Virus record (IMG/VR): IMGVR_UViG_3300045974_000134
Location: 1-25,214 of that record
Length of the DNA stretch: 25,214 nt
From: a virus
Taxonomy: Duplodnaviria; Caudoviricetes
Strand: one strand, 5' to 3'
Positions 1-12,044 of the stretch are shown here, one piece after another. The notes beneath the pieces are model-generated. The model worked only from the letters and a program-made list of their open reading frames with translations, did no database searches and had not been told where the DNA came from. The translations under genes and the position numbers were made by a program. Position 1 is the stretch's first letter; every line of letters begins with the position of its first letter.

Positions 1-3000
1 TAGCCTCTCAGGTTGCCCCACTCGCTCTTAAGCTTGTCCAGTTCTCCGCGATAGCCAAGGATATCCCGGAAAGCAGAGAGCATGTTTCCCTGGTGTTTCT
101 TCTCAGTCTGGTCAACCTGTTTCCAGAAGTCACGATAGGCGGCAATGACAGCAGGGCTCGCTTTGATCTTGGAGGGGTTCTCGCCGCTGGCAAGTTCATC
201 ATCAGTGAGATTCCGCTTAAGGCTACGAATCAGGCGGTGGACTTCACTTGCTTCTTTCGCATCAAGGTGTGCTGCTCGCTCCATGTTCTTGTTCAGGAGT
301 TCGACCAGATCAGCGAACCACTCTTGATCCTTATATGGAAGCATTGACAGTTCATCAAGTTGTTGGAAGCGTACCCGATTGGCTGCATTCATAACTTCAT
401 GGAATGCCCGATAGGCTTCAACAACAGTTTTCCCGACTTTGCCGAACTTGGTTTTACCGCGATACAGTTCGTCTCGAGTGAAGTATGTGGCAACTCCGTT
501 TTCATCGCCGTGCTTTATCAGGTCGTTAAACTGTTTTATTTCTTCTTTGCTGGCTTTCTTAAGAATATTGTCCAGTCCTTCAACGCCGGCATAGCCCTCT
601 GATGCCTGGAACAGATCAGAGATAATGCCGTTGCGGTTCTGGCTCCGTTCCAGGTTGAGATTAACGACATGGCGGCGTATCGGTTTGCCTTCACTTCCGA
701 ACCACGGATTAGAGAGAATCTTGCCGATGTTGGCTTTCAGGCGTTCAGGAATACTCTGACCGGCCATTTCAATCAGGCTCTTGACCATATCGGTAACTTT
801 GGCCGGGGCGTTGATCTTGGCGGCGTGATCGGCTATACCTTGGTCTTGAAGGGAGAAATTAACGTCGCTGTTGGTGGGGTCAAACATGCCATTATTCCCC
901 GTAGCTGACTTGATCTGGTCATTTGAGAATACGGCATAGTTCTTTTGAGGACGTTCGCCATCCAGTGATTCATACACGATCATACCATCATATCCAGCTT
1001 CTTTAATTGCTTCACGTACATCGATGGTTTCAAGAGCTTTCCATTCGCCATTGGATATTCTGCGGTCAAGATCCAAGCGAGTTGCGGTTGTATATGCATC
1101 TGCTGGCAAACTGGAAATAATATCTTTGACAGCTTTGGAATCAAATGGATCAAATGCTTTTTCTATTCTCAAATATACCGGCATCACAGAGGGATATCCC
1201 TGTTTGAGGTGTTTAGGCACGTATGGATCTGTGATTTCTGCATTTCCAGCAAACTTTGAAGCAAATTCGGGAGAAGAGGAAAAGAAGATGGGGCCTTCAA
1301 AAATCCCTTTTCTGAAAGTACCAAAATCATTCCGCGTGCCATGATAAACCACAAGCGGGTTGCCTTGTTTGTCAACAACCGTGCTATCGCCAAACCACTT
1401 CTTGAAATTTGGGGTGTCAGTCTGGCCACTTGCTGCAAACATTGCCTCATCCCCGCCCTTGCCAACTGACAACCGTTTTTCACCAATCCGCAACATCTCT
1501 GCCACGGCCAGCGACAATTCGCTATCTGAAACATGCGAGATAAGCCCCTGTTGACGCAACCAGTGCTTGATGTACATGAATAGACGCTGCATCAAACCTG
1601 ACGGTTTCCAGTCTGCATTCACTGCCTGTTCAGCTATGGCGGCGGTTGCTTCCTGTACGGCACGGCGGTATTGCTTTTCGTCGGTTAGGTCGTATCCATA
1701 TCGGTCAGCAATCCGTTGCAGCATCAGGTGTGCTTCTTTGGCGGCTTCTGTTTTGCCATTCACGGTACGCTTGAACCAGTCAACAGCCAGGTCAACGATC
1801 TTGCTCGTCTGTCCGGCGTGCGCCAGTTCGTGACCAATGACCAGCGCCTTGACGCGCTGCAGATCCGGGACGTTATCAGTTATGACGTGAATGGTGCCGT
1901 GCAGTTCCATTGCCTGAACATGATCGGGGTTTACCTGGGCCTTGGTGATTTCCGCCTGAGCGTTCTCGGGAAGATCGGAAATGGATTGAACGACGTTGAC
2001 ACGCTTGGCGATGGGGAGAGTGGATACCCAGGCTTGGGCTTCGGTGGCTTGCATACCGGTTGATTGAGTATCGGTAAGCTTGAAGTTGGCTTCGGTATTC
2101 GTTCCGACTGGCTGTTTTTCATCCGCCGTCAACTCCGCCTGCAACTGCGACAACTCGGCAATCTTCTCATTGAACGCCGCTTCATGCTCAAACGGTGCAC
2201 CGATTCTTTTCACCAACTGTTTCAGTTTGGTTTCATCATCAGCAAGATTCGATTCTGTTCTACGAAGCGAATCAGATACATCGTTCAAGCGGTTGAAGAT
2301 CCTCCGGGCCAAACCAGCACCATCAGTCCCTTGCGGATACATCATCATGTTGGTGTCAATTTCTGACGGAACATTATCAGTTATCTGGATAATATTGGAA
2401 TACTGCATTGTCACCGCCGACATGGCAACGGACGCAACCATCGGCATACCGTTGATACTGCCGTACTGCTGTGAATCAGTCCAGACACCTTTGTAACTAT
2501 CATCAGGGAATTGGTTTTGCAGATCCATCACCGCCTGATTATATGCAGCAACCACCGCTTCACCGAATTTTCCCGGCTTGTCAAACGTCCGCTTACCGAC
2601 AATGCCCTTGAAGCTACTGCCGGAAACATAGCCGCCAACAGCCTTTACCGCTTCTTTCAACTTAGCAATATGCTTATTGTACGCAGAAATATTCCATTCC
2701 GCCGTGTTCTTGTCACCCCTCATCTGGCTCTGTTGCTGAAAGTGTGCTTCTTTCAAGCGGGAAAAGCGTTCAATATCAGCCTGCAATCCAACCAGCTTGA
2801 TAACCCGTTCATCACCAGACGACAATGCCCGTGCCATTTCATACTGGCTGACTTCTGAAACATCTTCCATTGTGCGCAGATTATCGTCACCCATAAAGGC
2901 TTGCTCGATAAAGCGACCTTTACGGCCTACCATCTGCCACATGGTTGAATCGTAACTGCCCTTTGTGGAATACCAATTAGCTTCAATCTCGGTATTCTGG

Positions 3001-6000
3001 TTCCCTTGACGGATGATGCGCCCGTGCGCTTGTTCAACAGCAGACGGGTACCACGGTGGGTCAATATAATGCAGAGCATAGAGGCGGGTTTGCAGATTCT
3101 TACCGACACCCAGACTATTGGCATGGCCGATAATGATCTTCTTGCGCCCTTCGCGCATATCCTTCATGACTGACAACTGCTTGGCACTGGTGTCATATTC
3201 ATCAAACCACGCCACTTCACCAGCAGGAATACCGGCAGCTTTCAAGCGCTGATTGATCCAAGCCCGAGCATCAAAACCACGGCTCTTGGCGACGTTGGCA
3301 CCGAAACCATGATTATAAAAGACAACCTGTGTGCCTCCCTTTATCGGGGAGGGTTTACCGTCAACGCCATTGTATTTATTATCCTTCGTGTCTTTATACA
3401 CCCGGATAATTTCATCAATCACGCGGTTCAGCTTGCTATCAGGATCGTTCTTGGTCGAACCGACCAGGCGCATATCAATAGACGATAAGCGGCCATCGGT
3501 AATAATATTGATAATCGGGTCAGGGTTTCCTGGCTGGTCCGGTGTCGGCTTCCAGTCCCGTGCCCGCTTCATACGTGGTTGCAGCACATTTGCCTGATAC
3601 GCTTTCAATTCATCAGACGGCGTAGCGATAATCATATTCGGCTTGCCGCCCTTGATATCAGGACGAACCACATATGCCCCCAGGTGGCTGGAAGTCAGCA
3701 CATCCATAAAGGTACGCACCCGCTTCATCAACTCCGGCAGGTTATTGAATTTGGCAAAGCGTGATACCGGCTCGTACTTGCCAGCGGCATTCAGTTCATA
3801 ATCCATAGCCGTCTGACCAAACATCGCCGCCCATGCGTCAAAATGGCCGATATCGTCCCGCTCCATCTCTTCTTCCATAAAGAAGCGCATGACGTTGTAC
3901 AACTCGCCCATTGTATTTGTCACAGGTGTACCGGACGCAAAGACATGACTGCGGCCTGGCTTTTGATGCTCCATCCAGTTTGTTTTCAGAAACAGGTCAA
4001 GAGCGATACGACTACCAACAGGGTCAATTCCCTTGACCTGCTGCGCCGTGGTAAAATCCAGCTTACGGAACTTGTGCGCCTCATCGACAAAAAGGAAGTC
4101 AACGCCAAGCTCTTCATAGGTAATAATATTATCGCCCTTGCCATCTTCGACAATACTGTCAAAGCGCTGTTCGGCATTTTCAATCATCTTCTCCATCTTG
4201 GATATTAGGTGACGCGGTGCATCATCATCCCGTGCTTCCGTCAATGCTTCACGCATGGCGTTCAACATCTTCTCTTTCACTGGAGCAACACTTTCCGGCT
4301 TCATGCGCAACTTACCAAGTGCTGATTGCGTAATGATAATAGCATCAGGGGCATTCATCGCCGCCTGAGCCATAAAGCGTTTACGGTTTTTCAGATCAAA
4401 GTTCAGTTCATCGGCCACCATAATGTTTGCCAGCGGGTACGCATCCATGAATTCAGCGGACCATTGCGATAGCTGGTCATTCGGCACCACGTAGAGAGGC
4501 TTGTTGATCAGCCCCAGGCGCTTCATCTCCATACCGGCTGCAATCATCTCCAGTGTTTTGCCCGCACCAACAGCATGCGCCAGATAGGCATTTCCGGTCT
4601 GGATCATGCGCCAGATCGCCCGCTTCTGGTGAGGATGTAGCTTGTACTTGGTAGCGATGCCGGGAAGTGTCAGGTGACTGCCATCAAAACGACGGGGAGC
4701 CAGATTGTTGTACTTCTTATTGTAGAGATCCAGCATCTCGCCAGCACGTTCAGCATCAGTCCAGATCCACGAACGGAACTCCGTCCGCATCTTGTCGGCA
4801 ATCTCATTTACTCGGGCAGTTGCGGCTGGATCTACAGATACTTTGCCATCAAGGTCACGAACAGTAATGCGCAGAGGACGCTGATTCAGCACAGCATCAA
4901 GGATCTCGTTGGCACCACGGTCAGCCGTACCCCATTCAGCGGTTGAGCTACGCAACGACTGCACACCCTGCTTTTTACTGGAAGAACGCCGGCCATATCC
5001 TTTGGCCGGGGCATTGCCCATTGTCACCTTCCAGGTGTTTGTTGCCGCATGGCGCTCTACCTTTATATTCAGGTTCAGCACTTCCTGGGCGAACTCCCCG
5101 ACAATATCAGTCGGTATCCACGCCATACCAAGGCCAGCGGTAATCTGTCCCGGTGTAAGCGGTTTTGGCTGTACTTCGGTTAATGCCTTGACGTTTGCGC
5201 GAAACTTCTCATCACTCCGTGCCGCCTGTTCAGCTTCTGCCAGTTTAGTAACAACATCACCAGACAGATATTCATCCGCCAGCAGATGTTCACCGGATGG
5301 CGTTTCATAGATCATATCGCCCAAGGCTTCAATCGCTTCATTGCGAGAAATCTTCATCAATCCGGCAATATGATCCAGGTCAAGCATCCCGATTTCATCA
5401 AGCGACAACGCAAGTGCATCACCCATGCTCTCCGGATTGGTGGAACGCACCGGCTTCATGACGGTACGACCGGTTAGGAAGGAGGCTTTTGAAATATCGC
5501 CATCGTCGTTGATCTGCTCAAGCGCGAGAACAAGCGAACCCTCAACGTCGATGTTTGCTGTTTTTTCCCACTTATAATTGCGCGACTCTACTTTCTGTTC
5601 ATTGCCATCTTCATCAAGCTCTGTTTTGACTTTCAGCGTAAAGTCTTTGATGTTGCCGTACTTCTTCACAAAAGCGTCATACGCCTTATTCAGTTCCTTC
5701 AACGACTTTTCCCACCCTGCATCGTTGAACTGGTCAAAACGTGCCTGTTTCATTAGGTCGCGCAACGGAATATAATCGGTCAACCAGACTTGCTCTTTTG
5801 CTGATAGCTTCACCATGCTGGAGAGCGGCACACCGGAACCGTTTTCTACCCGCATTATTTCACCCTTGCTAGACAGGTACACGCCCCCCTCTTTCTTATT
5901 CTTGGGGCTAAAATCACGCTCTACGACAACCTGCTTGATCGTTTTCGGATCTTGTCGCATGGCACTGTAGACGTTGGCAGGCAGGTTTTGCACAGCAGCG

Positions 6001-9000
6001 GCAAAGAGCTGTTCAATATCGCCTTCCAGTGGTTTAACAGAATAATCATTCTGGCTGAATTGGCCTCGCTCGGTAACATGAGTACCCAACACCATTTCAG
6101 GATGAGCGGCAAAATACTCGTTGATCTGTTTAGTCTGGTCGCCTATCTGAATATCTGCGGTTTTGCCCCAGGCATGGCCACCGGCCTCATCACCATCGGC
6201 ACGCTTGCGCAAAAAGATAACATCAGTAACAACTTCCGTACCGCTATGCTGTTTGAAAGCGGTTTGGGGTAGACGGATTGCACCCAGTAGGTCGGCACGT
6301 TCAGAAAGATATGCCCGTGCCTTGTCGTCCAGCTTATCCATAGTATAGCGACTGGTAACGAACGCCAGTAGGCCACCGGGACGCACCTTGTCAATGGTCT
6401 TGGCAAAGAAGAAGTCATGCAGTGAAAACTTGTTTTTCTTGTAATCAGGGTCAGTTAGGATTGTTGTGGATGAAAACGGCGGATTGCCGATTGCCACGTC
6501 AAAGAAATTGCCGGGGAACTTCTGCTTGGTGTAGTCACCGTGGATAATATTCTGATTCGGATAGAGCTGTTGTGCTATGGTAGCAGTAATGCCATCCATT
6601 TCAATACCGGTATACTTGGAATTGGCGTAGATACCATCAGGCATGGTGCCCATAAAGTTACCGGTACCGGGGCCAGGTTCAAACACCTTGCCACCAGCAA
6701 AGCCCATACGCTCAAAAGCTTTCCACATGGAGCGGGTAATAGCTTCACTGGTGTAGTGGGCATATTGACTGGAGCGTGCGGCGGTCTTTAATTCTTCGGG
6801 AGTAAGCGCAGTATCAAGGCGGTCAACCAGCGGTTTCCATGCTGCTTCTGCCCATTGTGGGATTATACGTCCTTGTTCGGCATAACCGGGGAATATCTTG
6901 TTGCGGATTTCGCCAGCACCCCAGCCAACATACTTCATCAACAGAAGCTGCTCGTCTGGTGTGGCCATGCGCTTTTCTTCGCGGAGAGCTTTAATCAGTT
7001 CAACAATATCAAGGTTACGGCTGGCGCTATCCTTCCAGCTTCCGGTACGCTCTAAGCCGCCATTTGGGATTCGTAAATCTCCGGTGGCATCGGATCGGAG
7101 AATTCCAGATAATCCGCTCGGGTCACTTCCCAGATCTCGCGTTGTGCTTGTTCCATCTCCTGCACTTGCTGCATCGAATCGTGGATCTTGCTGATCTTCG
7201 TTAATGCTTGATGATACACTGACCGATACGACTCCTCCATCTCCACTGCGTACTCTTCCAGGAACGTCTGCAATGTCCCCGCTTGTTTCAATTCCTTGTA
7301 CATCTGAGGTGCCTGTTCCTTCATCGACAATGCTATCATCTGTTCCAGTTTTTTGCCGCTCGGAATTAACATCTGACACCTCCTCGTTTTCTTCTATTAT
7401 AGCATAATTATTGTTTTTTACATCATCCATAAAGCGCATCAGGTACGGTTTAATTGCATTTCCAAACTGTTTGGCGATGAACTGAAAGAACTCGGTTAAC
7501 TGTTTGCCGGATTCTTTGAAGTTATTATACGCCGCCACAAAATGAGGCTTGGCTTTGGCATAGGTATGTTCGTCCACAGCACCGGGGAAGTTCTTTAGCG
7601 AGCCACCACCAAAGCTGTCATAGAGCCCTTTCAATGCTTCACCGGCACCCTTGACGCCATAATCAGCGGCGGCTTTCAGAATATCGCTTGCGCCTCGGGT
7701 GTCGTTCTGTCCTCCGCCAAAAACAGGACCGGAGCCAATGTGTTCAATAGTTGCGATTTCCGTTTTTATGCCGTCTACAAGATCGGCTATCTTTGTTTTT
7801 TCGGTTGCCGTGAAGTAATGCCACAGGCGATATTTGATGCCGAGCTTACTCAGAATCTGTTTTTGACCAAGCAGGGTATACGCCGACCACCAGTCTGGCG
7901 CTTGATCGGACAGAGCAATGTCGCTATCTTCCTCAACAACACTCTTCCCGGCCAGTGCCGTATTCAATTTATCCAGAAAATCAAACGGTGGCGAAAACTT
8001 ATTGCCTGGTGCCGTGGCACCGACACTACGGTGATACCAATCACCATCTACTTTGGAATATATGTACGGATTGCTATCAACCTGAACTTCGTTATCCGCC
8101 AGCTCTACCTTTACAGGAGCTACCGCCTCGCCCTGCAAACCTTCAACAAACTTCCGCCGTGCAGGAGTATCAGTCACATACCAAACACGTTTACGCATTG
8201 CCCATCGGAAACCTTCCGCCTTGATCTTGCTGATAACAGCATCAGACGGTTTACCCTCAAAGCGCAATTCAATACCATTCTGTGCACTGTTGAATGAAAC
8301 CTTCATCCCGGCAACCGGCTCTATCTTTGGCTTGGCCGCTTCAACCTTCTGCCGGTACTTATCCGCCTCATCTGGGTACTTTTCTGCCCACACATCAAAC
8401 GCCGCCTGCTGTTCATCAGCAGTCTTGTCAAAAGCAGTTGCCGACTTTTCGTGACTGGCAATATTCTCTTTCTTCTTGGCACGTTCAGCTGCATTGCGTG
8501 AACTCTGTGCCTGTTTGCGGGAATACGCTACATTTCGCAGTAGCGTATCTGGTTCTACGGCTACTTTATTATAAACCGGAGCAGGAACGACAGCCGGAGC
8601 TGGATCTGTTTCATGATTCGTGTAATCAAACGAGACATATCCGGATACACCATCATCCCACATAGCTTCATAAATGTGCGAGTAACGAGTAGATGACTCA
8701 GACGAAAGGCCACCATAAGAAATCATGCGGCTGGTAAATGTTTCAGCCCGAGTTATTTCTCCATGCTTACCATCGTTATCCTGAACACGATCCCCTTCTT
8801 TAAAGTATGGTGTCGCCTGGTCGTCTCTTTCCGGTTTTGCAGGATGGGACCCAACAGGCGGTGGAGTGCTTTTCCGCTCGTCCTGCTTCGCCTTATGCTT
8901 TTGTAACGCTTTCTGAATGCGGGGTTTGTTCTCCGGCTTGGCCTTGGCTATAACCTGCTTCAAATACGCTTCGTGCTTCTTGGCTTTTGACAGCGAACGT

Positions 9001-12000
9001 ACCGGTTTTTCAGCAGCCGTTACATCGTCAAACATCGCCGCCATTTCCTCAAGCGACAGGCTATTAATTTCATCTTCAATGGTCTTAGCTGCAGCAGGCA
9101 CTTCATCAGTCACACCGGTGCGCTCTTTCATCTTGGCAATTCGGTCTTGTAATGCTTTCCGTACTTTCGGTTCTTTTGCGGCAAGCATCTCCGCTTTCAG
9201 TTTTGCAAGATGCTTTTGGCGAGCAACGCCAAGACGCCTTACCCTTGCTGTCTCTGCCGGATCTTCGCTTGCAGTATTATCTTTACTGACTGCATGAACG
9301 CCTGTTTTTGTTCCGGGGTCATTCCCTTGCACTTGTCCTTGATCTTCTGTGCGGCCTTCTTCGCTTCTGAACTCTGTGGCATCAAGAGCCTCCCTGAAAT
9401 TATTTTCAACTCCCTGCCAATCGGCAGCGGTCATTGGCGGTTCAAAGGTTTCAGCTAAGTAGTCATCTATAATATCTGCGGATTCAGCCAATAATACCGA
9501 CTGTTCTTCAACCCACTGATTGTGATGGAACTCGTCATACTCTTCATCGGTCATTGCATCCAGCATTGCCTGAAAACGGGACTCCTGATCTTTTTGGAGA
9601 GATGTGTAATTGCTTTCGCCGCGTGTATCGTTTGATGAAGCGAATACATGAGAGCCTCGCGAAGAGTCGTCCAGGGGAATACCTTTGGTGCTGATTACGT
9701 GCAGTATCCCGGCCTTGGCTTCTTTGGTTGCCTGACTGTTTAATGTATGCGCAAGATCCTTGCCGGATGTTGTTTCCTTATCAATTTGGGCTCGGCTGAT
9801 CCCGCCCAATTTTGCGGCTGCCACTATCAAACTGTCTTTGGATGTATCCAGTTGACGGCGGGTGTTGGCTGGTTTGGTTGCGGCAGAGGTTTTGACAACA
9901 ACATCTTTCAGGCTGTTTTCATGCTTCTGGATCTCTGTATTGATTTCACCTAATCGCCGGGTGACTTCTGCTGGATACACTAAACCGCCAGTAATCCCCT
10001 TGTTGTTATTGTTGGCAAGCAGTTGCTCTTTTTCCTGCTTCAACGCGGTAACGCGGTCCGCTACAGTGGATTTCCGCAGGTCGGACACTTCTTTTTGCGG
10101 CCCATTGACTTTTTGCTGCACATTGGACAAACCATCACTTACACCTCCGGATTGGATATTATTACTTCCGACTCCTGCCACTTGGCTTTGCAGGTTGGAC
10201 ACTGCCAATCCCGGCCCGTCCATTTTACTCGGCCCTGCTCCTTGCATTTTGGGCAATACACCTGTAGTGCCATTGGCATTCTCCTGATATGGTTGAATTT
10301 TTACTATTACTTTACCGGATGCAGCTGGAACGCTTTCCATGGTACCGTCCATCTTCTTCCGGGTGATAATATATGGCTCTGCAATTGCCGACAATCCTGC
10401 CGAGGTAGCGTTTTGCAATAAAGAGTCTGCTACCTGTTGCGGCATGGGAGGTGAAAGATATTCACCATTCTGAATTGCACCGACTCCACCTGTTGTAAAA
10501 TGATCGGCGTTACGGATCTTTGGGAAACCGAGAGATGTTAAAAATGTATTGGTATCACCGCTTGATAGGGCAGAGAGTGACGGGTGCTGTTGTTCTCCTG
10601 GCGCATTAGCAAATGGATTGGCGGCAAACGATGAATACATGTTTGCCGTTACGTTTGTTGATACGGGGGGCAGATCAGGTAATATTGATTTGACGGCGCG
10701 GGTCATTGCCCCTGCCGGTGGAGTTGCAGCTATACCAAGATCACGTCCCGAATCCACGGGCCAGTTTTTGGGTATAGAATCGGCGGCAACACCTGATGTA
10801 TCTTGCAGTATGTTACCAGTGCGTGTATTTGCTCCTGTGACAATTTCGGTAGCGGGTTGGTTTTGCTGATTGAGGGCATTGGTTTCCTCCGTTGGCGTTT
10901 GTGGCTGTTGTCCTCGCTGCTGCATTACATCGGATATGTGACCAGCAGCAGAAGAACCGCCGCCCATGACGCCACCGATCAGGCCACCAGCTGCCATTGA
11001 TTCAATAATATCATTCCATGCTTCCGGGTGAACGGCAGCACTGATACCTTTATCTGCGGCAACCTTAAGGAAGGCGCTGAAATTTCCGCCAGCCTTGTTG
11101 ACTTCATCAGAATACACCTGCTTATTGGCTCCAATGTTTTCCAGAACCGTCTGCACGCCCTCCTGTATCGTCTCTTCACCAATACCCAGACCGGCAATCT
11201 TGGCCGTATCCTTGACGCGCTGCACACCAGTCAAAGCGGTTTTACCGGTAAGCGCCTCAGCCTCTCCTGAAACCTTACCCATTCCCGGCATGATCTTGGT
11301 CAAGCCGGTTTTCTTCATCAAATAAGCAGGGAACGCGGTATCAAGGATGCCCGCTGCGGTGCCATAAAGCAGTGACCGCCCCATATCCTTTTCTTCCGGT
11401 TTCTGATCGCGGTAGATCGTAGCCGTTTCCATGCCTATTGAGTTGGCACCGGTTGCGGCGATTGCACCAGTGGTACCGGCACGATTGGCGGCCAGTGTTG
11501 CAACGTTTTCAGCGGTGAGCGTTCTTCCTGAATTGATTGCGGTTTTAGTCGCAGCCTCCATCGCTTTTTTCCCGGCAATGGTTTCTAGTGATGCAATACC
11601 GCCACGGGCAAGGCCACCGGCAGCAACACGTCCAGCAGCGGCACCAACTCCACCGGTTGCAATCCCAATGACGGCTTGTGGTAAAAACTCTACCAATTGT
11701 TCACCGGCCCATCGACCTGCATCACCTACACTTTTGATATCTCGGAATTTCTGGGAAGGGTCTTCCTGCTCTTTCTGCGCAATCCAGGATTCGGCAGTAT
11801 CCCCCCATAATTTACCCGCATCTTCAATAGCCTTGACCCCTGTAGCGCGGCCAGCCATTTCCGTAATGCCGGCAACAGGCAGGGCAAGATATTTATTAGA
11901 ACCTACAGCAAAGTGAGTTGCAATATCCTCTACAATACCGCGCTTTGGAGGCGGCTCCGGTGCGGCCTTGCGGTTCATGATACTGTCAAGCTCGTTATAG

Positions 12001-12044
12001 AATGTATCAGAACTGCCGGGACGTGCTAAAAGCTGGTCACTCAT
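1..12044 (-). CDS. Giant DarB-like / large polyvalent protein (>=4014 aa, runs off the left edge); probably virion-packaged and ejected
   Basis: ATG at 12044 after GAGGGA; begins MSDQLLARPGSSDTFYNELD. The same frame (codon starts at position mod 3 = 2) carries NPPF (6485), DEAH (4085), HELAH (1832) and YHGT (1346), and reaches ...DKLKSEWGNLRG at the window edge. The ORF track lists no long closed ORF in this frame, consistent with no internal stop. The N-terminal part has Gly/Ala-rich hydrophobic segments typical of ejection proteins. Confidence 0.93.
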   Translation of the reverse strand, partial: MSDQLLARPGSSDTFYNELDSIMNRKAAPEPPPKRGIVEDIATHFAVGSNKYLALPVAGITEMAGRATGVKAIEDAGKLWGDTAESWIAQKEQEDPSQKFRDIKSVGDAGRWAGEQLVEFLPQAVIGIATGGVGAAAGRVAAGGLARGGIASLETIAGKKAMEAATKTAINSGRTLTAENVATLAANRAGTTGAIAATGANSIGMETATIYRDQKPEEKDMGRSLLYGTAAGILDTAFPAYLMKKTGLTKIMPGMGKVSGEAEALTGKTALTGVQRVKDTAKIAGLGIGEETIQEGVQTVLENIGANKQVYSDEVNKAGGNFSAFLKVAADKGISAAVHPEAWNDIIESMAAGGLIGGVMGGGSSAAGHISDVMQQRGQQPQTPTEETNALNQQNQPATEIVTGANTRTGNILQDTSGVAADSIPKNWPVDSGRDLGIAATPPAGAMTRAVKSILPDLPPVSTNVTANMYSSFAANPFANAPGEQQHPSLSALSSGDTNTFLTSLGFPKIRNADHFTTGGVGAIQNGEYLSPPMPQQVADSLLQNATSAGLSAIAEPYIITRKKMDGTMESVPAASGKVIVKIQPYQENANGTTGVLPKMQGAGPSKMDGPGLAVSNLQSQVAGVGSNNIQSGGVSDGLSNVQQKVNGPQKEVSDLRKSTVADRVTALKQEKEQLLANNNNKGITGGLVYPAEVTRRLGEINTEIQKHENSLKDVVVKTSAATKPANTRRQLDTSKDSLIVAAAKLGGISRAQIDKETTSGKDLAHTLNSQATKEAKAGILHVISTKGIPLDDSSRGSHVFASSNDTRGESNYTSLQKDQESRFQAMLDAMTDEEYDEFHHNQWVEEQSVLLAESADIIDDYLAETFEPPMTAADWQGVENNFREALDATEFRSEEGRTEDQGQVQGNDPGTKTGVHAVSKDNTASEDPAETARVRRLGVARQKHLAKLKAEMLAAKEPKVRKALQDRIAKMKERTGVTDEVPAAAKTIEDEINSLSLEEMAAMFDDVTAAEKPVRSLSKAKKHEAYLKQVIAKAKPENKPRIQKALQKHKAKQDERKSTPPPVGSHPAKPERDDQATPYFKEGDRVQDNDGKHGEITRAETFTSRMISYGGLSSESSTRYSHIYEAMWDDGVSGYVSFDYTNHETDPAPAVVPAPVYNKVAVEPDTLLRNVAYSRKQAQSSRNAAERAKKKENIASHEKSATAFDKTADEQQAAFDVWAEKYPDEADKYRQKVEAAKPKIEPVAGMKVSFNSAQNGIELRFEGKPSDAVISKIKAEGFRWAMRKRVWYVTDTPARRKFVEGLQGEAVAPVKVELADNEVQVDSNPYIYSKVDGDWYHRSVGATAPGNKFSPPFDFLDKLNTALAGKSVVEEDSDIALSDQAPDWWSAYTLLGQKQILSKLGIKYRLWHYFTATEKTKIADLVDGIKTEIATIEHIGSGPVFGGGQNDTRGASDILKAAADYGVKGAGEALKGLYDSFGGGSLKNFPGAVDEHTYAKAKPHFVAAYNNFKESGKQLTEFFQFIAKQFGNAIKPYLMRFMDDVKNNNYAIIEENEEVSDVNSERQKTGTDDSIVDEGTGTSDVQGIETSGDIADVPGRVRSGDGGVVSVSVSSSINEDQQDPRFDAASAGDGTSTTRDLGSDPSGLSGILRSDATGDLRIPNGGLERTGSWKDSASRNLDIVELIKALREEKRMATPDEQLLLMKYVGWGAGEIRNKIFPGYAEQGRIIPQWAEAAWKPLVDRLDTALTPEELKTAARSSQYAHYTSEAITRSMWKAFERMGFAGGKVFEPGPGTGNFMGTMPDGIYANSKYTGIEMDGITATIAQQLYPNQNIIHGDYTKQKFPGNFFDVAIGNPPFSSTTILTDPDYKKNKFSLHDFFFAKTIDKVRPGGLLAFVTSRYTMDKLDDKARAYLSERADLLGAIRLPQTAFKQHSGTEVVTDVIFLRKRADGDEAGGHAWGKTADIQIGDQTKQINEYFAAHPEMVLGTHVTERGQFSQNDYSVKPLEGDIEQLFAAAVQNLPANVYSAMRQDPKTIKQVVVERDFSPKNKKEGGVYLSSKGEIMRVENGSGVPLSSMVKLSAKEQVWLTDYIPLRDLMKQARFDQFNDAGWEKSLKELNKAYDAFVKKYGNIKDFTLKVKTELDEDGNEQKVESRNYKWEKTANIDVEGSLVLALEQINDDGDISKASFLTGRTVMKPVRSTNPESMGDALALSLDEIGMLDLDHIAGLMKISRNEAIEALGDMIYETPSGEHLLADEYLSGDVVTKLAEAEQAARSDEKFRANVKALTEVQPKPLTPGQITAGLGMAWIPTDIVGEFAQEVLNLNIKVERHAATNTWKVTMGNAPAKGYGRRSSSKKQGVQSLRSSTAEWGTADRGANEILDAVLNQRPLRITVRDLDGKVSVDPAATARVNEIADKMRTEFRSWIWTDAERAGEMLDLYNKKYNNLAPRRFDGSHLTLPGIATKYKLHPHQKRAIWRMIQTGNAYLAHAVGAGKTLEMIAAGMEMKRLGLINKPLYVVPNDQLSQWSAEFMDAYPLANIMVADELNFDLKNRKRFMAQAAMNAPDAIIITQSALGKLRMKPESVAPVKEKMLNAMREALTEARDDDAPRHLISKMEKMIENAEQRFDSIVEDGKGDNIITYEELGVDFLFVDEAHKFRKLDFTTAQQVKGIDPVGSRIALDLFLKTNWMEHQKPGRSHVFASGTPVTNTMGELYNVMRFFMEEEMERDDIGHFDAWAAMFGQTAMDYELNAAGKYEPVSRFAKFNNLPELMKRVRTFMDVLTSSHLGAYVVRPDIKGGKPNMIIATPSDELKAYQANVLQPRMKRARDWKPTPDQPGNPDPIINIITDGRLSSIDMRLVGSTKNDPDSKLNRVIDEIIRVYKDTKDNKYNGVDGKPSPIKGGTQVVFYNHGFGANVAKSRGFDARAWINQRLKAAGIPAGEVAWFDEYDTSAKQLSVMKDMREGRKKIIIGHANSLGVGKNLQTRLYALHYIDPPWYPSAVEQAHGRIIRQGNQNTEIEANWYSTKGSYDSTMWQMVGRKGRFIEQAFMGDDNLRTMEDVSEVSQYEMARALSSGDERVIKLVGLQADIERFSRLKEAHFQQQSQMRGDKNTAEWNISAYNKHIAKLKEAVKAVGGYVSGSSFKGIVGKRTFDKPGKFGEAVVAAYNQAVMDLQNQFPDDSYKGVWTDSQQYGSINGMPMVASVAMSAVTMQYSNIIQITDNVPSEIDTNMMMYPQGTDGAGLARRIFNRLNDVSDSLRRTESNLADDETKLKQLVKRIGAPFEHEAAFNEKIAELSQLQAELTADEKQPVGTNTEANFKLTDTQSTGMQATEAQAWVSTLPIAKRVNVVQSISDLPENAQAEITKAQVNPDHVQAMELHGTIHVITDNVPDLQRVKALVIGHELAHAGQTSKIVDLAVDWFKRTVNGKTEAAKEAHLMLQRIADRYGYDLTDEKQYRRAVQEATAAIAEQAVNADWKPSGLMQRLFMYIKHWLRQQGLISHVSDSELSLAVAEMLRIGEKRLSVGKGGDEAMFAASGQTDTPNFKKWFGDSTVVDKQGNPLVVYHGTRNDFGTFRKGIFEGPIFFSSSPEFASKFAGNAEITDPYVPKHLKQGYPSVMPVYLRIEKAFDPFDSKAVKDIISSLPADAYTTATRLDLDRRISNGEWKALETIDVREAIKEAGYDGMIVYESLDGERPQKNYAVFSNDQIKSATGNNGMFDPTNSDVNFSLQDQGIADHAAKINAPAKVTDMVKSLIEMAGQSIPERLKANIGKILSNPWFGSEGKPIRRHVVNLNLERSQNRNGIISDLFQASEGYAGVEGLDNILKKASKEEIKQFNDLIKHGDENGVATYFTRDELYRGKTKFGKVGKTVVEAYRAFHEVMNAANRVRFQQLDELSMLPYKDQEWFADLVELLNKNMERAAHLDAKEASEVHRLIRSLKRNLTDDELASGENPSKIKASPAVIAAYRDFWKQVDQTEKKHQGNMLSAFRDILGYRGELDKLKSEWGNLRG
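870..1420 (-). other. Domain of the giant ORF: ADP-ribosyltransferase-like (ART-PolyVal type)
   Basis: TPNFKKWFGDSTVVDKQGNPLVVYHGT (YHGT 1335-1346)...IFFSSSPEFASKFA...VMPVYLRIEKAFD...AIKEAGYDGMI (GYDG 984-995)...NYAVFSNDQIKSATGNNGMFDP, the motif series of polyvalent-protein ARTs. Boundaries approximate. Confidence 0.8.
1500..2000 (-). other. Domain of the giant ORF: zincin-like metallopeptidase (MPTase-PolyVal type)
   Basis: GTIHVITDNVPDLQRVKALVIGHELAHAG with HExxH at 1818-1832, followed by VQEATAAIAE (candidate third ligand Glu). Boundaries approximate. Confidence 0.75.
2880..4650 (-). other. Domain of the giant ORF: SF2 (SNF2-like) helicase/ATPase of DarB type
   Basis: Walker A LAHAVGAGKT (~4554-4583), motif Ia VVPNDQLSQW, Walker B FLFVDEAH (DEAH 4074-4085), motif III ASGTPVTN, motif VI EQAHGRIIRQGN (~3000-3035). 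Confidence 0.92.
6200..7040 (-). other. Domain of the giant ORF: amino (N6-adenine) DNA methyltransferase of DarB type
   Basis: AHYTS, SAM-binding motif I VFEPGPGTGNF (6654-6686), catalytic motif IV FDVAIGNPPF (NPPF 6474-6485), then HDFFFAKTIDKVRPGGLLAFVTSRYTMDK and GAIRLPQTAF. Confidence 0.93.
7052..7372 (-). CDS. Nested +1-frame gene, 106 aa, helical, TnpV-like
   Basis: SD GAGGAGGTG (7377-7385) just upstream of the ATG, with TGcTATAAT further upstream. The sequence MKEQAPQMYKELKQAGTLQTFLEE...QQVQEMEQAQREIWE resembles the TnpV family pattern as recalled (not searched). The host frame here is a G/D/S-rich linker. Confidence 0.75.
   Translation of the reverse strand: MLIPSGKKLEQMIALSMKEQAPQMYKELKQAGTLQTFLEEYAVEMEESYRSVYHQALTKISKIHDSMQQVQEMEQAQREIWEVTRADYLEFSDPMPPEIYESQMAA
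7396..7404 (-). promoter_or_regulatory. Intragenic extended -10 promoter (TGcTATAAT) for the nested 106-aa gene
   Basis: Minus strand reads aaaaaacaataattaTGcTATAATagaagaaaacGAGGAGGTGtcagATG: a perfect TGnTATAAT in a local AT-rich island; -35 is poor. Confidence 0.7.
9239..9382 (-). CDS. Nested +1-frame gene, 47 aa basic helical peptide
   Basis: GGGAGG-ctcttg-ATG; MPQSSEAKKAAQKIKDKCKGMTPEQKQAFMQSVKIILQAKIRQRQQG*. Lies in a linker of the giant ORF and is too short to appear in the ORF track. Confidence 0.55.
   Translation of the reverse strand: MPQSSEAKKAAQKIKDKCKGMTPEQKQAFMQSVKIILQAKIRQRQQG
10061..10135 (-). CDS. Nested +1-frame zinc-ribbon microprotein, 24 aa
   Basis: GGAGGT-N7-ATG; MVCPMCSKKSMGRKKKCPTCGNPL* (CPxC-x10-CPxC). 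Starts 3 nt after the stop of the 44-aa zinc-ribbon ORF. Confidence 0.6.
   Translation of the reverse strand: MVCPMCSKKSMGRKKKCPTCGNPL
10139..10273 (-). CDS. Nested +1-frame zinc-ribbon microprotein, 44 aa
   Basis: AGGAG-N7-ATG; MALQVYCPKCKEQGRVKWTGRDWQCPTCKAKWQESEVIISNPEV* (CPKC-x14-CPTC with WxC and a downstream W, typical of zinc ribbons). Confidence 0.68.
   Translation of the reverse strand: MALQVYCPKCKEQGRVKWTGRDWQCPTCKAKWQESEVIISNPEV
10730..10879 (-). CDS. Nested +1-frame gene, 49 aa hypothetical
   Basis: GGAGG-aaacca-ATG; MPSISKTNPLPKLSQEQIHALVTYCKIHQVLPPILYPKTGPWIRDVILV*. Begins where the hydrophobic N-terminal region of the giant protein gives way to linker. Confidence 0.5.
   Translation of the reverse strand: MPSISKTNPLPKLSQEQIHALVTYCKIHQVLPPILYPKTGPWIRDVILV

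Follow-up and report, generated by a model that had tools for sequence, protein, structure and literature searches.

Analysis of a 25,214-base virus record (IMG/VR record IMGVR_UViG_3300045974_000134; Duplodnaviria, Caudoviricetes), which is about 40% complete and is referred to here in its full length as the window, revealed two adjacent micro-genes, ZnR1 and ZnR2, nested in the +1 frame of a giant gene; both are very probably real, translated genes, and each encodes a short peptide with the paired CxxC knuckles of a zinc ribbon. The host open reading frame (ORF) occupies positions 3..12044 on the minus strand, is DarB-like, comprises at least 4,014 codons, is open to the end of the record and contains no cysteine. 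The ribbon genes recur, nested in the same way, in related viral loci, and they are two of five nested genes in this one host gene. Our combined results tentatively suggest that the ribbons are separately translated late micro-proteins that help the giant protein in the producing cell, a role to which we give somewhat less than an even chance overall, and an even one if the genes are taken to be real and translated.

Two out-of-frame ribbon genes and their conservation

A preliminary description of this DNA had proposed two consecutive +1 ORFs of 44 and 24 codons, each preceded by a Shine-Dalgarno (SD) sequence at a spacing of 7 nucleotides (nt), and this arrangement was confirmed on the minus strand. 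ZnR1 (10139..10273, minus strand; ATG at 10273, TAA ending at 10139) encodes 44 amino acids (aa) with the pattern CPKC...CPTC (CxxC-x14-CxxC) and a conserved C-terminal tail, I-x-x-N-P-E; its SD, AGGAG (10281..10285, minus strand), has a 7-nt spacer and ranks 9 among 175 out-of-frame ATGs ordered by anti-SD pairing. ZnR2 (10061..10135, minus strand; ATG at 10135, TAG ending at 10061) encodes 24 aa (CPMC...CPTC; CxxC-x10-CxxC) with a net charge of +6, and its SD, GGAGGT (10143..10148, minus strand), also with a 7-nt spacer, ranks 2 of 175 and lies within the final codons of ZnR1, as had likewise been described. The two ORFs share one frame, and a single codon (GTG) separates the ZnR1 TAA from the ZnR2 ATG. 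Each lies wholly inside another ORF, in a different frame, with its own start signals, which is what defines an embedded gene.

All four CPxC motifs in the +1 frame of the host ORF are located in ZnR1 and ZnR2. When synonymous codons were redrawn with the host protein held fixed, four CPxC motifs arose in 0 of 200,000 draws and all eight cysteines in 56 of 200,000; none of 2,000 synonymous and none of 2,000 codon-permuted whole genes had, in one of its five other frames, a 62-codon stretch with at least three CPxC motifs. A looser cluster of at least four CxxC motifs appeared in 45 of the 2,000 synonymous and 36 of the 2,000 codon-permuted genes. The earlier view that four CPxC knuckles are unlikely by chance holds for the CPxC form and is weaker for loose CxxC; the decisive evidence is conservation in relatives.

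Relatives were found by a host-frame scan (L001), by a scan with the neighboring host domain (L096), and by ORF scans and degenerate pattern scans (L012/L013, L016/L020, and L004/L017); an additional candidate, L095, turned out to be unrelated. With identical pairs counted once and the window included, ZnR1 was present in five distinct sequences (the window, L001/L003, L096, L012/L013, and L016/L020) and ZnR2 in six, namely, the same five and L004/L017, which has ZnR2 alone amid unrelated flanks. Every ribbon copy is nested in the +1 frame of a long host ORF and has an SD and an ATG, and the carrying host ORFs comprise at least 3,750 codons with 0 or 1 cysteine (L013 and L017 are shorter fragments). 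All loci recovered by two degenerate pattern scans (4 and 2 loci) and two alignment scans (2 and 1 loci) were nested, with zero standalone copies. Across four aligned sequences, 22 of the 44 ZnR1 columns are invariant, including all four cysteines. Conservation of the cysteines among homologs, which had been proposed as a check, was found in the +1 frame: all four, and with them the two CxxC knuckles that define a zinc ribbon, are retained in 5/5 ZnR1 and 5/6 ZnR2 sequences. Among the phages, the ZnR1 stop switches between TAA and TGA while its position is kept.

The distribution of substitutions points to selection on the nested frame. Between the window and L001, the 213 nested nt carry 40 substitutions, distributed 22, 12, and 6 over the first, second, and third positions of the host codons (21, 12, and 6 after a one-base shift of the counted region), against 4, 3, and 15 in the next 117 nt (Fisher p = 2e-4). 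Read in the +1 frame, the changed codons of the same pair comprise 14 silent and 13 replacement changes; read in the host frame, they comprise 1 and 27, respectively. The ratio of nonsynonymous to synonymous differences per site (pN/pS), pooled over the six pairs of four ungapped sequences (L020 and L004 were excluded owing to gapped alignment), was 0.23 for ZnR1 and 0.22 for ZnR2 in the +1 frame, against 1.72 and 1.68 in the host frame; the host-frame values above 1 follow arithmetically from selection on the +1 frame and are no sign of positive selection. The control relied on, the methylase region of the window and L096, gave a host pN of 0.011 and a pS of 0.336; the other two of the three methylase-region controls, both with L003, gave a host pN of 0.13 and are probably out of register through an indel. 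The host frame has no stop codon across the ribbons, against 11.6 expected for ZnR1 (four sequences) and 4.9 for ZnR2 (five sequences) when the nested proteins are recoded at random with uniform codon choice. A conserved host-frame motif, which the preliminary description had named among the findings that would undo its proposal, was not seen: the host frame changes freely and the +1 frame is conserved. Apparent families in the +2 frame scored higher in the host frame and were rejected as shadows, and antisense ORFs over the ribbons (9862-10287 and 10023-10421) were discarded as not open in the same frame in relatives.

Judging from its sequence and structure model, ZnR1 can be placed in the zinc-ribbon class and in nothing more specific, and both peptides would bind zinc through their four cysteines. 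The fold and protein searches concern ZnR1; ZnR2 is too short for either. The ZnR1 model, built from four sequences, had a predicted local distance difference test score (pLDDT) of 68.9 and a predicted template modeling score of 0.44; a fold search with it gave a best Z of 3.1, with 0 of 48,161 chains at Z ≥ 5, and a search of BFVD gave 0 matches at E ≤ 0.001. In the ESM Atlas, zinc-ribbon clusters came up at 0.92-0.93 with 124-134 shared features, which are leads only, and PHROGs and NCBIfam returned weak generic matches only. The generic zinc ribbons (TFIIB/TiaS/PhnA/L37ae/MJ0042, and DZR and zinc_ribbon_1/3 for ZnR2) share the CxxC-x10-14-CxxC pattern and a predicted beta-hairpin and match weakly, but none reached a curated cut-off or stood out, so the likeness is one of fold class and not of family or function. 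No relative of ZnR1 was found in a set of 5.8 billion proteins (lengths 24-77, three shared 5-mers required). Among 1.84 billion representative proteins there were six matches at E ≤ 0.001, all to repeat proteins (five with multiple CxxC motifs and a long one that lacks CxxC) and none judged a relative, and searches of GenBank phages and of plasmids gave matches at E 0.7 only and none, respectively.

Five nested genes in one host gene

The term micro-operon, used in the preliminary description, fits four of the five loci that have both ribbon ORFs, but the pair belongs to a larger nested layer of five genes. The other three, all in the +1 frame and on the minus strand, are ORF0 (10730..10879; 49 aa, SD GGAGG, no family match, four distinct sequences, SD rank 4/175), ORF4 (9239..9382; 47 aa, basic and likely helical, five sequences, SD rank 3/175), and ORF5 (7052..7372; 106 aa, TnpV-like and helical, directly upstream of the methylase domain, SD rank 1/175). 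The five nested starts occupy ranks 1, 2, 3, 4, and 9 in the ordering of out-of-frame ATGs, and at least five SD-led nested ORFs were found in none of 2,000 synonymous and in 8 of 2,000 permuted genes. L001 and L096 keep all five.

ORF5 matched the Pfam family TnpV (PF14198) at E 6e-4 with 20.6 bits, below the cut-off of 27, and no match to it was found in GenBank phages; within its family, 19 of 61 members matched TnpV at E ≤ 0.01, the best at 4e-8. For a wider survey, the best 80 of 139 confirmed methylase-bearing viral loci were grouped at 90% into 62 clusters, the window included. The ORF5 profile matched 61 of these 62 clusters, always as a +1 ORF whose end lies 179-263 codons upstream of the NPPF motif. 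The lone exception, L053, has a shorter +1 ORF (~71 aa) about 230-300 codons before that motif. Across the TnpV-like gene (62 sequences), the host frame has 0 stops against 355 expected and 0 cysteines against 164 expected. The structure model of ORF5 is a confident four-helix fold (pLDDT 91); the predicted complex of the TnpV-like protein with the methylase module scored 0.11 (mark, 0.32).

ORF4 (9382-9239) follows an acidic host segment (aa 729-881), and its upstream flank, this same acidic domain, is common to all pairs of carriers, while the downstream flank is shared in 1/10. As an idea only, their complementary charges suggest that ORF4 and the acidic segment are cognate partners, or that the segment mimics DNA and ORF4 caps it. 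A family of nested +1 ORFs of about 50-60 aa occurs in 10 hosts (L005-L010 and others, host aa ~820-1080); it has a consensus like KVRKL...SNPKMRRA.A.AIKAM, scores higher in the +1 than in the host frame, and is possibly distant kin of ORF4. Further SD-led +1 ORFs without Pfam matches lie at L004:9195-9362, L005:9414-9665, L020:13841-13999, and L003:15537-15710 (all plus strand). Those of L004 and L005 lie at or after a Zeta-like kinase domain (Pfam confirmed in L004, by eye in L005), and that of L020 precedes Kinase-PolyVal; these extra ORFs are candidate nested antidote genes.

Possible roles of the ribbon peptides

The ribbons are separate cassettes, exchanged with borders at the SD and the stop. 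Similarity between the window and L001 begins at the ZnR1 SD, and in L012/L013 the similarity to the window breaks at the ZnR1 stop and resumes at ZnR2, which has a different, separate SD in L012, about 200 host codons on. Both ribbons are confined to an N-terminal linker zone (host aa ~490-830) despite their exchanged flanks. In L012, an antisense gene of 170 aa (4616-5125, minus strand) lies exactly between ZnR1 and ZnR2; it matches HNH_3 (41.2 bits, cut-off 24.8), has a C-terminal helix-turn-helix domain and an SD, GGAGGT, and the host frame is open across it. Two related nested +1 ORFs of 164 and 184 aa (L063:8538-9029 and L066:8361-8912, plus strand) sit in different host flanks; we take them, from a motif, to be HNH homing endonucleases, although they had no Pfam match at E 0.01. 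A specific link of the ribbons to the DNA-modifying cargo, as the preliminary description had supposed, was not upheld. The 99% complete record behind L016/L020 (G001) has the tandem pair and lacks a DarB-type methylase module anywhere, as well as the TnpV-like gene, and the L012 host shows no methylase module in 3,942 residues, which indicates that the ribbons are independent of that cargo. The looser form of the proposal, that the peptides assist the giant protein, remains the best reading.

How the nested genes would be expressed can be outlined from the surrounding sequence. No terminator-like site was found on the minus strand between 7000 and 13600, and promoter-like sites there (9, against 7.7 ± 2.9 in shuffles) are at chance level, from which we infer internal initiation on the late structural mRNA. 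An internal promoter upstream of ZnR1 (a 9-of-12 site at 10394-10366) was rejected as a general explanation, its flank being replaced in L001, L012, and L096. A search of sequencing runs turned up one DNA data set with this sequence, possibly the sample it came from, and no RNA data set among those listed. The late structural transcript would thus be initiated internally at the nested starts, with ZnR2 translation probably coupled to that of ZnR1 where the two are adjacent, and the nested products would appear while the giant protein is being made and act before it is packaged. Cysteine is scarce in such giants (62 in 286,028 residues), which may be read as a demand of virion life and envelope passage; four-cysteine peptides would fit the cytoplasm of the producing cell better. 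As helpers, the ribbons might chaperone the giant protein, keep its enzymes quiet, or bind its mRNA or DNA, ZnR2 being strongly basic. As to their origin, small genes may have been captured into the linker. In this frame relation a host stop requires T at the nested third codon position, so synonymous substitutions in the nested gene could clear the host frame of stops and thereby open it; this is the ground for proposing capture. Nesting would let a cysteine-excluding gene carry cysteine-dependent functions and would keep helper and cargo together during domain swaps.

A helper role is favored by four considerations: the ribbons keep their place in the N-terminal linker zone although their flanks are exchanged, the sister genes track host modules, small helpers accompany P1 DarB, and four-cysteine peptides suit the cytoplasm. 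The TnpV-like gene goes with the methylase (in 61/62 clusters, and both are absent from G001), and ORF4 goes with the acidic upstream domain in all pairs; in P1, the small protein Ulx is listed in the relevant part of PMC9024508 as aiding DarB localization.

Several observations weigh against this role, or against the evidence for the genes themselves. The ribbons are rare, being found among the 62 surveyed clusters only in that of the window (four cysteines) and in L004 (three cysteines), and they are not a general need, since most giant genes do without them. Only a few loci carry the ribbons, most of them closely related, so that neither the co-occurrences nor the pairwise rates are independent, and the latter carry no multiple-hit correction; the stop test takes in only ORFs inside open host frames, in related and nonindependent sequences. 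The ribbon genes are very short, and ZnR2 has drifted in 2 of 6 sequences (L004 has three cysteines and a histidine, the third cysteine being lost, and the ORF in L020 extends to 68 aa). The ZnR1 upstream flank is shared in 0.4 and the downstream flank in 0.3 of pairs; as the ribbons track neither flank nor methylase, no cognate domain can be named. Their basic charge may come in part from a Gln/Glu-rich linker read in the +1 frame, true passengers such as the antisense HNH gene of L012 occupy the same sites, and the protein-set searches found no standalone ancestor, so that capture stays a proposal.

The main rival to the helper role, which we consider rather unlikely, is that the ribbons are independent late accessory proteins, such as nucleic-acid binders or inhibitors of host defense or of competing phages, that ride a strong late transcript and use the linker as a tolerant landing site. 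This would agree with separate cassettes that have SD and stop borders and no fixed flank, with the restriction of the ribbons to one clade, and with the unrelated genes found at the same sites (the Pfam-confirmed HNH gene of L012 and the presumed HNH genes of L063 and L066, without a Pfam match). A gene in the second frame of a phage methylase gene, described in the relevant passages of PMC11855218, is a published precedent. It is at odds with such a passenger status that a standalone copy is absent from every scan, that the ribbons have no mobility function of their own, so that their retention needs a benefit, and that their position in the N-terminal linker zone is kept though flanks differ. 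The kinship offered in the preliminary description, with Mu Com or with Lar/Ral, by which the ribbons would activate methylase translation or alleviate restriction, is improbable. Com, at 62 aa a small four-cysteine (CCCC) zinc finger with basic residues (PMC6483171, in the part concerned), resembles the ribbons, as do the Lar/Ral proteins with their four zinc-binding cysteines and basic residues, and a methylase is part of the host protein in 4 of the 6 carriers. The ribbons are, however, shorter (44 and 24 aa), nested, and present without a methylase in G001, and none is seen in the L012 host; Com (PF10122) is absent among 21 and 7 Pfam families at E ≤ 0.05, a six-frame search gave no Com candidate, and no profile match to Lar/Ral (PF14354) was found. 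Com is moreover linked to a separately translated modification gene, mom, whereas the methylase here is an internal domain of the host ORF. No shared RNA fold was seen around the nested starts, and peptides made late in the cycle would be poorly placed to protect at entry unless the virion carries them.

Three further explanations are less likely still. That the ORFs are untranslated now, and stem from a motif of the host frame, from an element of the RNA, or from a gene in decay, would suit their very short length and the two drifted ZnR2 copies; it is quite improbable given that the +1 frame is conserved while the host frame is not, that SD, ATG, and stop are kept with the stop switching among stop codons, and that a consensus RNA fold finds little support (covariation term, -0.5 kcal/mol; one of the four sequences breaks 18 of the 45 pairs). 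If instead the giant ORF were not read through, two shorter host genes would flank the ribbons, which would then be genes of the usual kind. Where it overlaps them, the host sequence is indeed unconstrained as a protein (pN/pS above 1), and L012 and L020 have a host-frame ATG that overlaps the ZnR1 TGA; such an ATG is absent from the window, L003, and L096, however, and the host frames are open for 3,750-5,231 codons, even across the HNH insertion, with zero stops over the ribbons in any carrier against the 11.6 and 4.9 expected, so that a split host is very unlikely. Readthrough of the ZnR1 stop into a double-ribbon protein, raised in the preliminary description, or a programmed frameshift that fuses a ribbon to the host protein, is the least credible: although the two ORFs are in frame and one codon apart in 4 of the 5 loci with both, the split of about 200 codons and the separate ZnR2 SD in L012/L013 and the occurrence of ZnR2 alone in L004/L017 make readthrough unlikely, ZnR2 has a strong SD of its own in 6 of 6 sequences, the ZnR1 stop may be TAA or TGA, the spacer codon varies (GTG, GCA, GCA, ATA), and the +1 frame upstream of the ZnR1 ATG is open for only 9-26 codons and is not conserved.

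Returning to the helper role, we propose, with rather low confidence, that polyvalent giants may be two-layer genes in general. The main frame would encode a cysteine-free, injected multi-enzyme chain, and the +1 frame of the linkers an exchangeable array of micro-genes (here five) that supplies chaperones, antidotes, and cysteine-dependent regulators, and recombination with borders at the SD and the stop would exchange a module or cassette while the giant stays intact; the two ribbons would be the first members of this layer to depend on cysteine.

Known systems and genomic setting

Small genes embedded in larger ones are of a known kind. In lambda, the spanin gene Rz1 is embedded in Rz in the +1 frame, has its own start, and encodes a product that partners that of the host gene. 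The ribbons resemble it as small genes wholly inside another in the +1 frame with their own starts; Rz1/Rz is one fixed lysis pair, whereas here several exchangeable cytoplasmic micro-genes lie in the linkers of a 4,000-residue protein, and any partnership with it is putative. A closer case in phage methylase genes is the ShiLan insertion, a hidden out-of-frame HNH endonuclease of mycobacteriophages (PMC11855218, in the passages concerned), where a complete second gene lies in another frame and the phage gene's own frame stays open, the insert being predicted to loop out. ShiLan is a single selfish homing gene with no detectable ribosome binding site, whereas the ribbons, which belong to a set of five nested genes, have strong SDs and no nuclease domain and bear the mark of purifying selection; the only homing-endonuclease gene of that type at the ribbon sites is the spacer of L012, a comparable case between the ribbons but antisense. 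P1 DarB and the polyvalent proteins (PMC5512222 and PMC9024508, in the sections concerned) share with this system a giant linked to virion genes, a DarB-type methylase-SNF2 module with ART-PolyVal, and small accessory proteins such as Ulx; the P1 helpers, by contrast, are separate genes and not nested.

The main text of PMC5512222 does not mention "overlap," "TnpV," "Zn ribbon," or "zinc ribbon," though its supplements on gene neighborhoods could mention such ORFs; it does mention small neighboring ORFs coding for polyvalent domains, which is a different thing from nested genes. In the titles and abstract openings surveyed, no nested genes were described in polyvalent or DarB-like genes, and the sections seen of PMC11879866 and PMC13551039 held nothing relevant. 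Within these sources, we could not find an exchangeable array in polyvalent-protein linkers described. Fully embedded phage genes are known as single cases; here one gene has five, all in the +1 frame, all led by strong SDs and all retained in relatives, and the giant-gene family shows this layout repeatedly. Gene callers drop such ORFs: ZnR1 is missing from huge protein sets, yet DNA searches found relatives at once. A darB-like gene that is deleted or knocked down would take several others with it, and what passes for a "low-complexity linker" in such a protein can be the shadow of a hidden gene. If the helper role is correct, it would explain how a 4,000-residue chain of methylase, helicase, ADP-ribosyltransferase, or kinase domains is harmlessly produced and loaded into the head.

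By the usage of PMC5512222, the host ORF encodes a polyvalent virion protein. Pfam domains Eco57I, SNF2/ResIII, and ART-PolyVal were found in it, and it matched PHROG 10089 (DarB-like antirestriction) with 1,688 bits; the methylase and SNF2-type helicase module spans 3003..6518 (minus strand; host aa ~1843-3014) and the ART-PolyVal domain 882..1373 (minus strand; host aa 3558-3721; 82.6 bits, cut-off 31.2), so that methylase, helicase, and further polyvalent domains are joined in one large chain, as in DarB. The segment across the nested genes is likely a linker. The gene order on the minus strand is scaffold, capsid, adaptor, head-closure, two cysteine-free genes, and then the giant, which places the host ORF among virion genes, on the same strand and downstream of those for the head; by analogy with its family (the relevant parts of PMC5512222 and PMC9024508), the giant protein would be packaged and injected. 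The phage's host is likely a member of the Geobacteraceae, given that the close relative L096 lies on a contig assigned by its title to a Geobacteraceae metagenome-assembled genome.

The N-terminal domain of the giant (12044-10900) is swapped among the close relatives L001, L012, L016, and L004, with the nested genes behind it kept; the window and L001 show no similarity before host aa 369, and a scan with this domain found no relative. The two genes that precede the giant (13477-12062 and 14580-13549, minus strand) are also cysteine free and ejection-protein-like, without a family match. Farther upstream, 18534-15124 (minus strand) encodes a 1,136-aa protein of the virion region with an MBG_2 domain and immunoglobulin-like repeats, probably a head decoration or an adhesion fiber.

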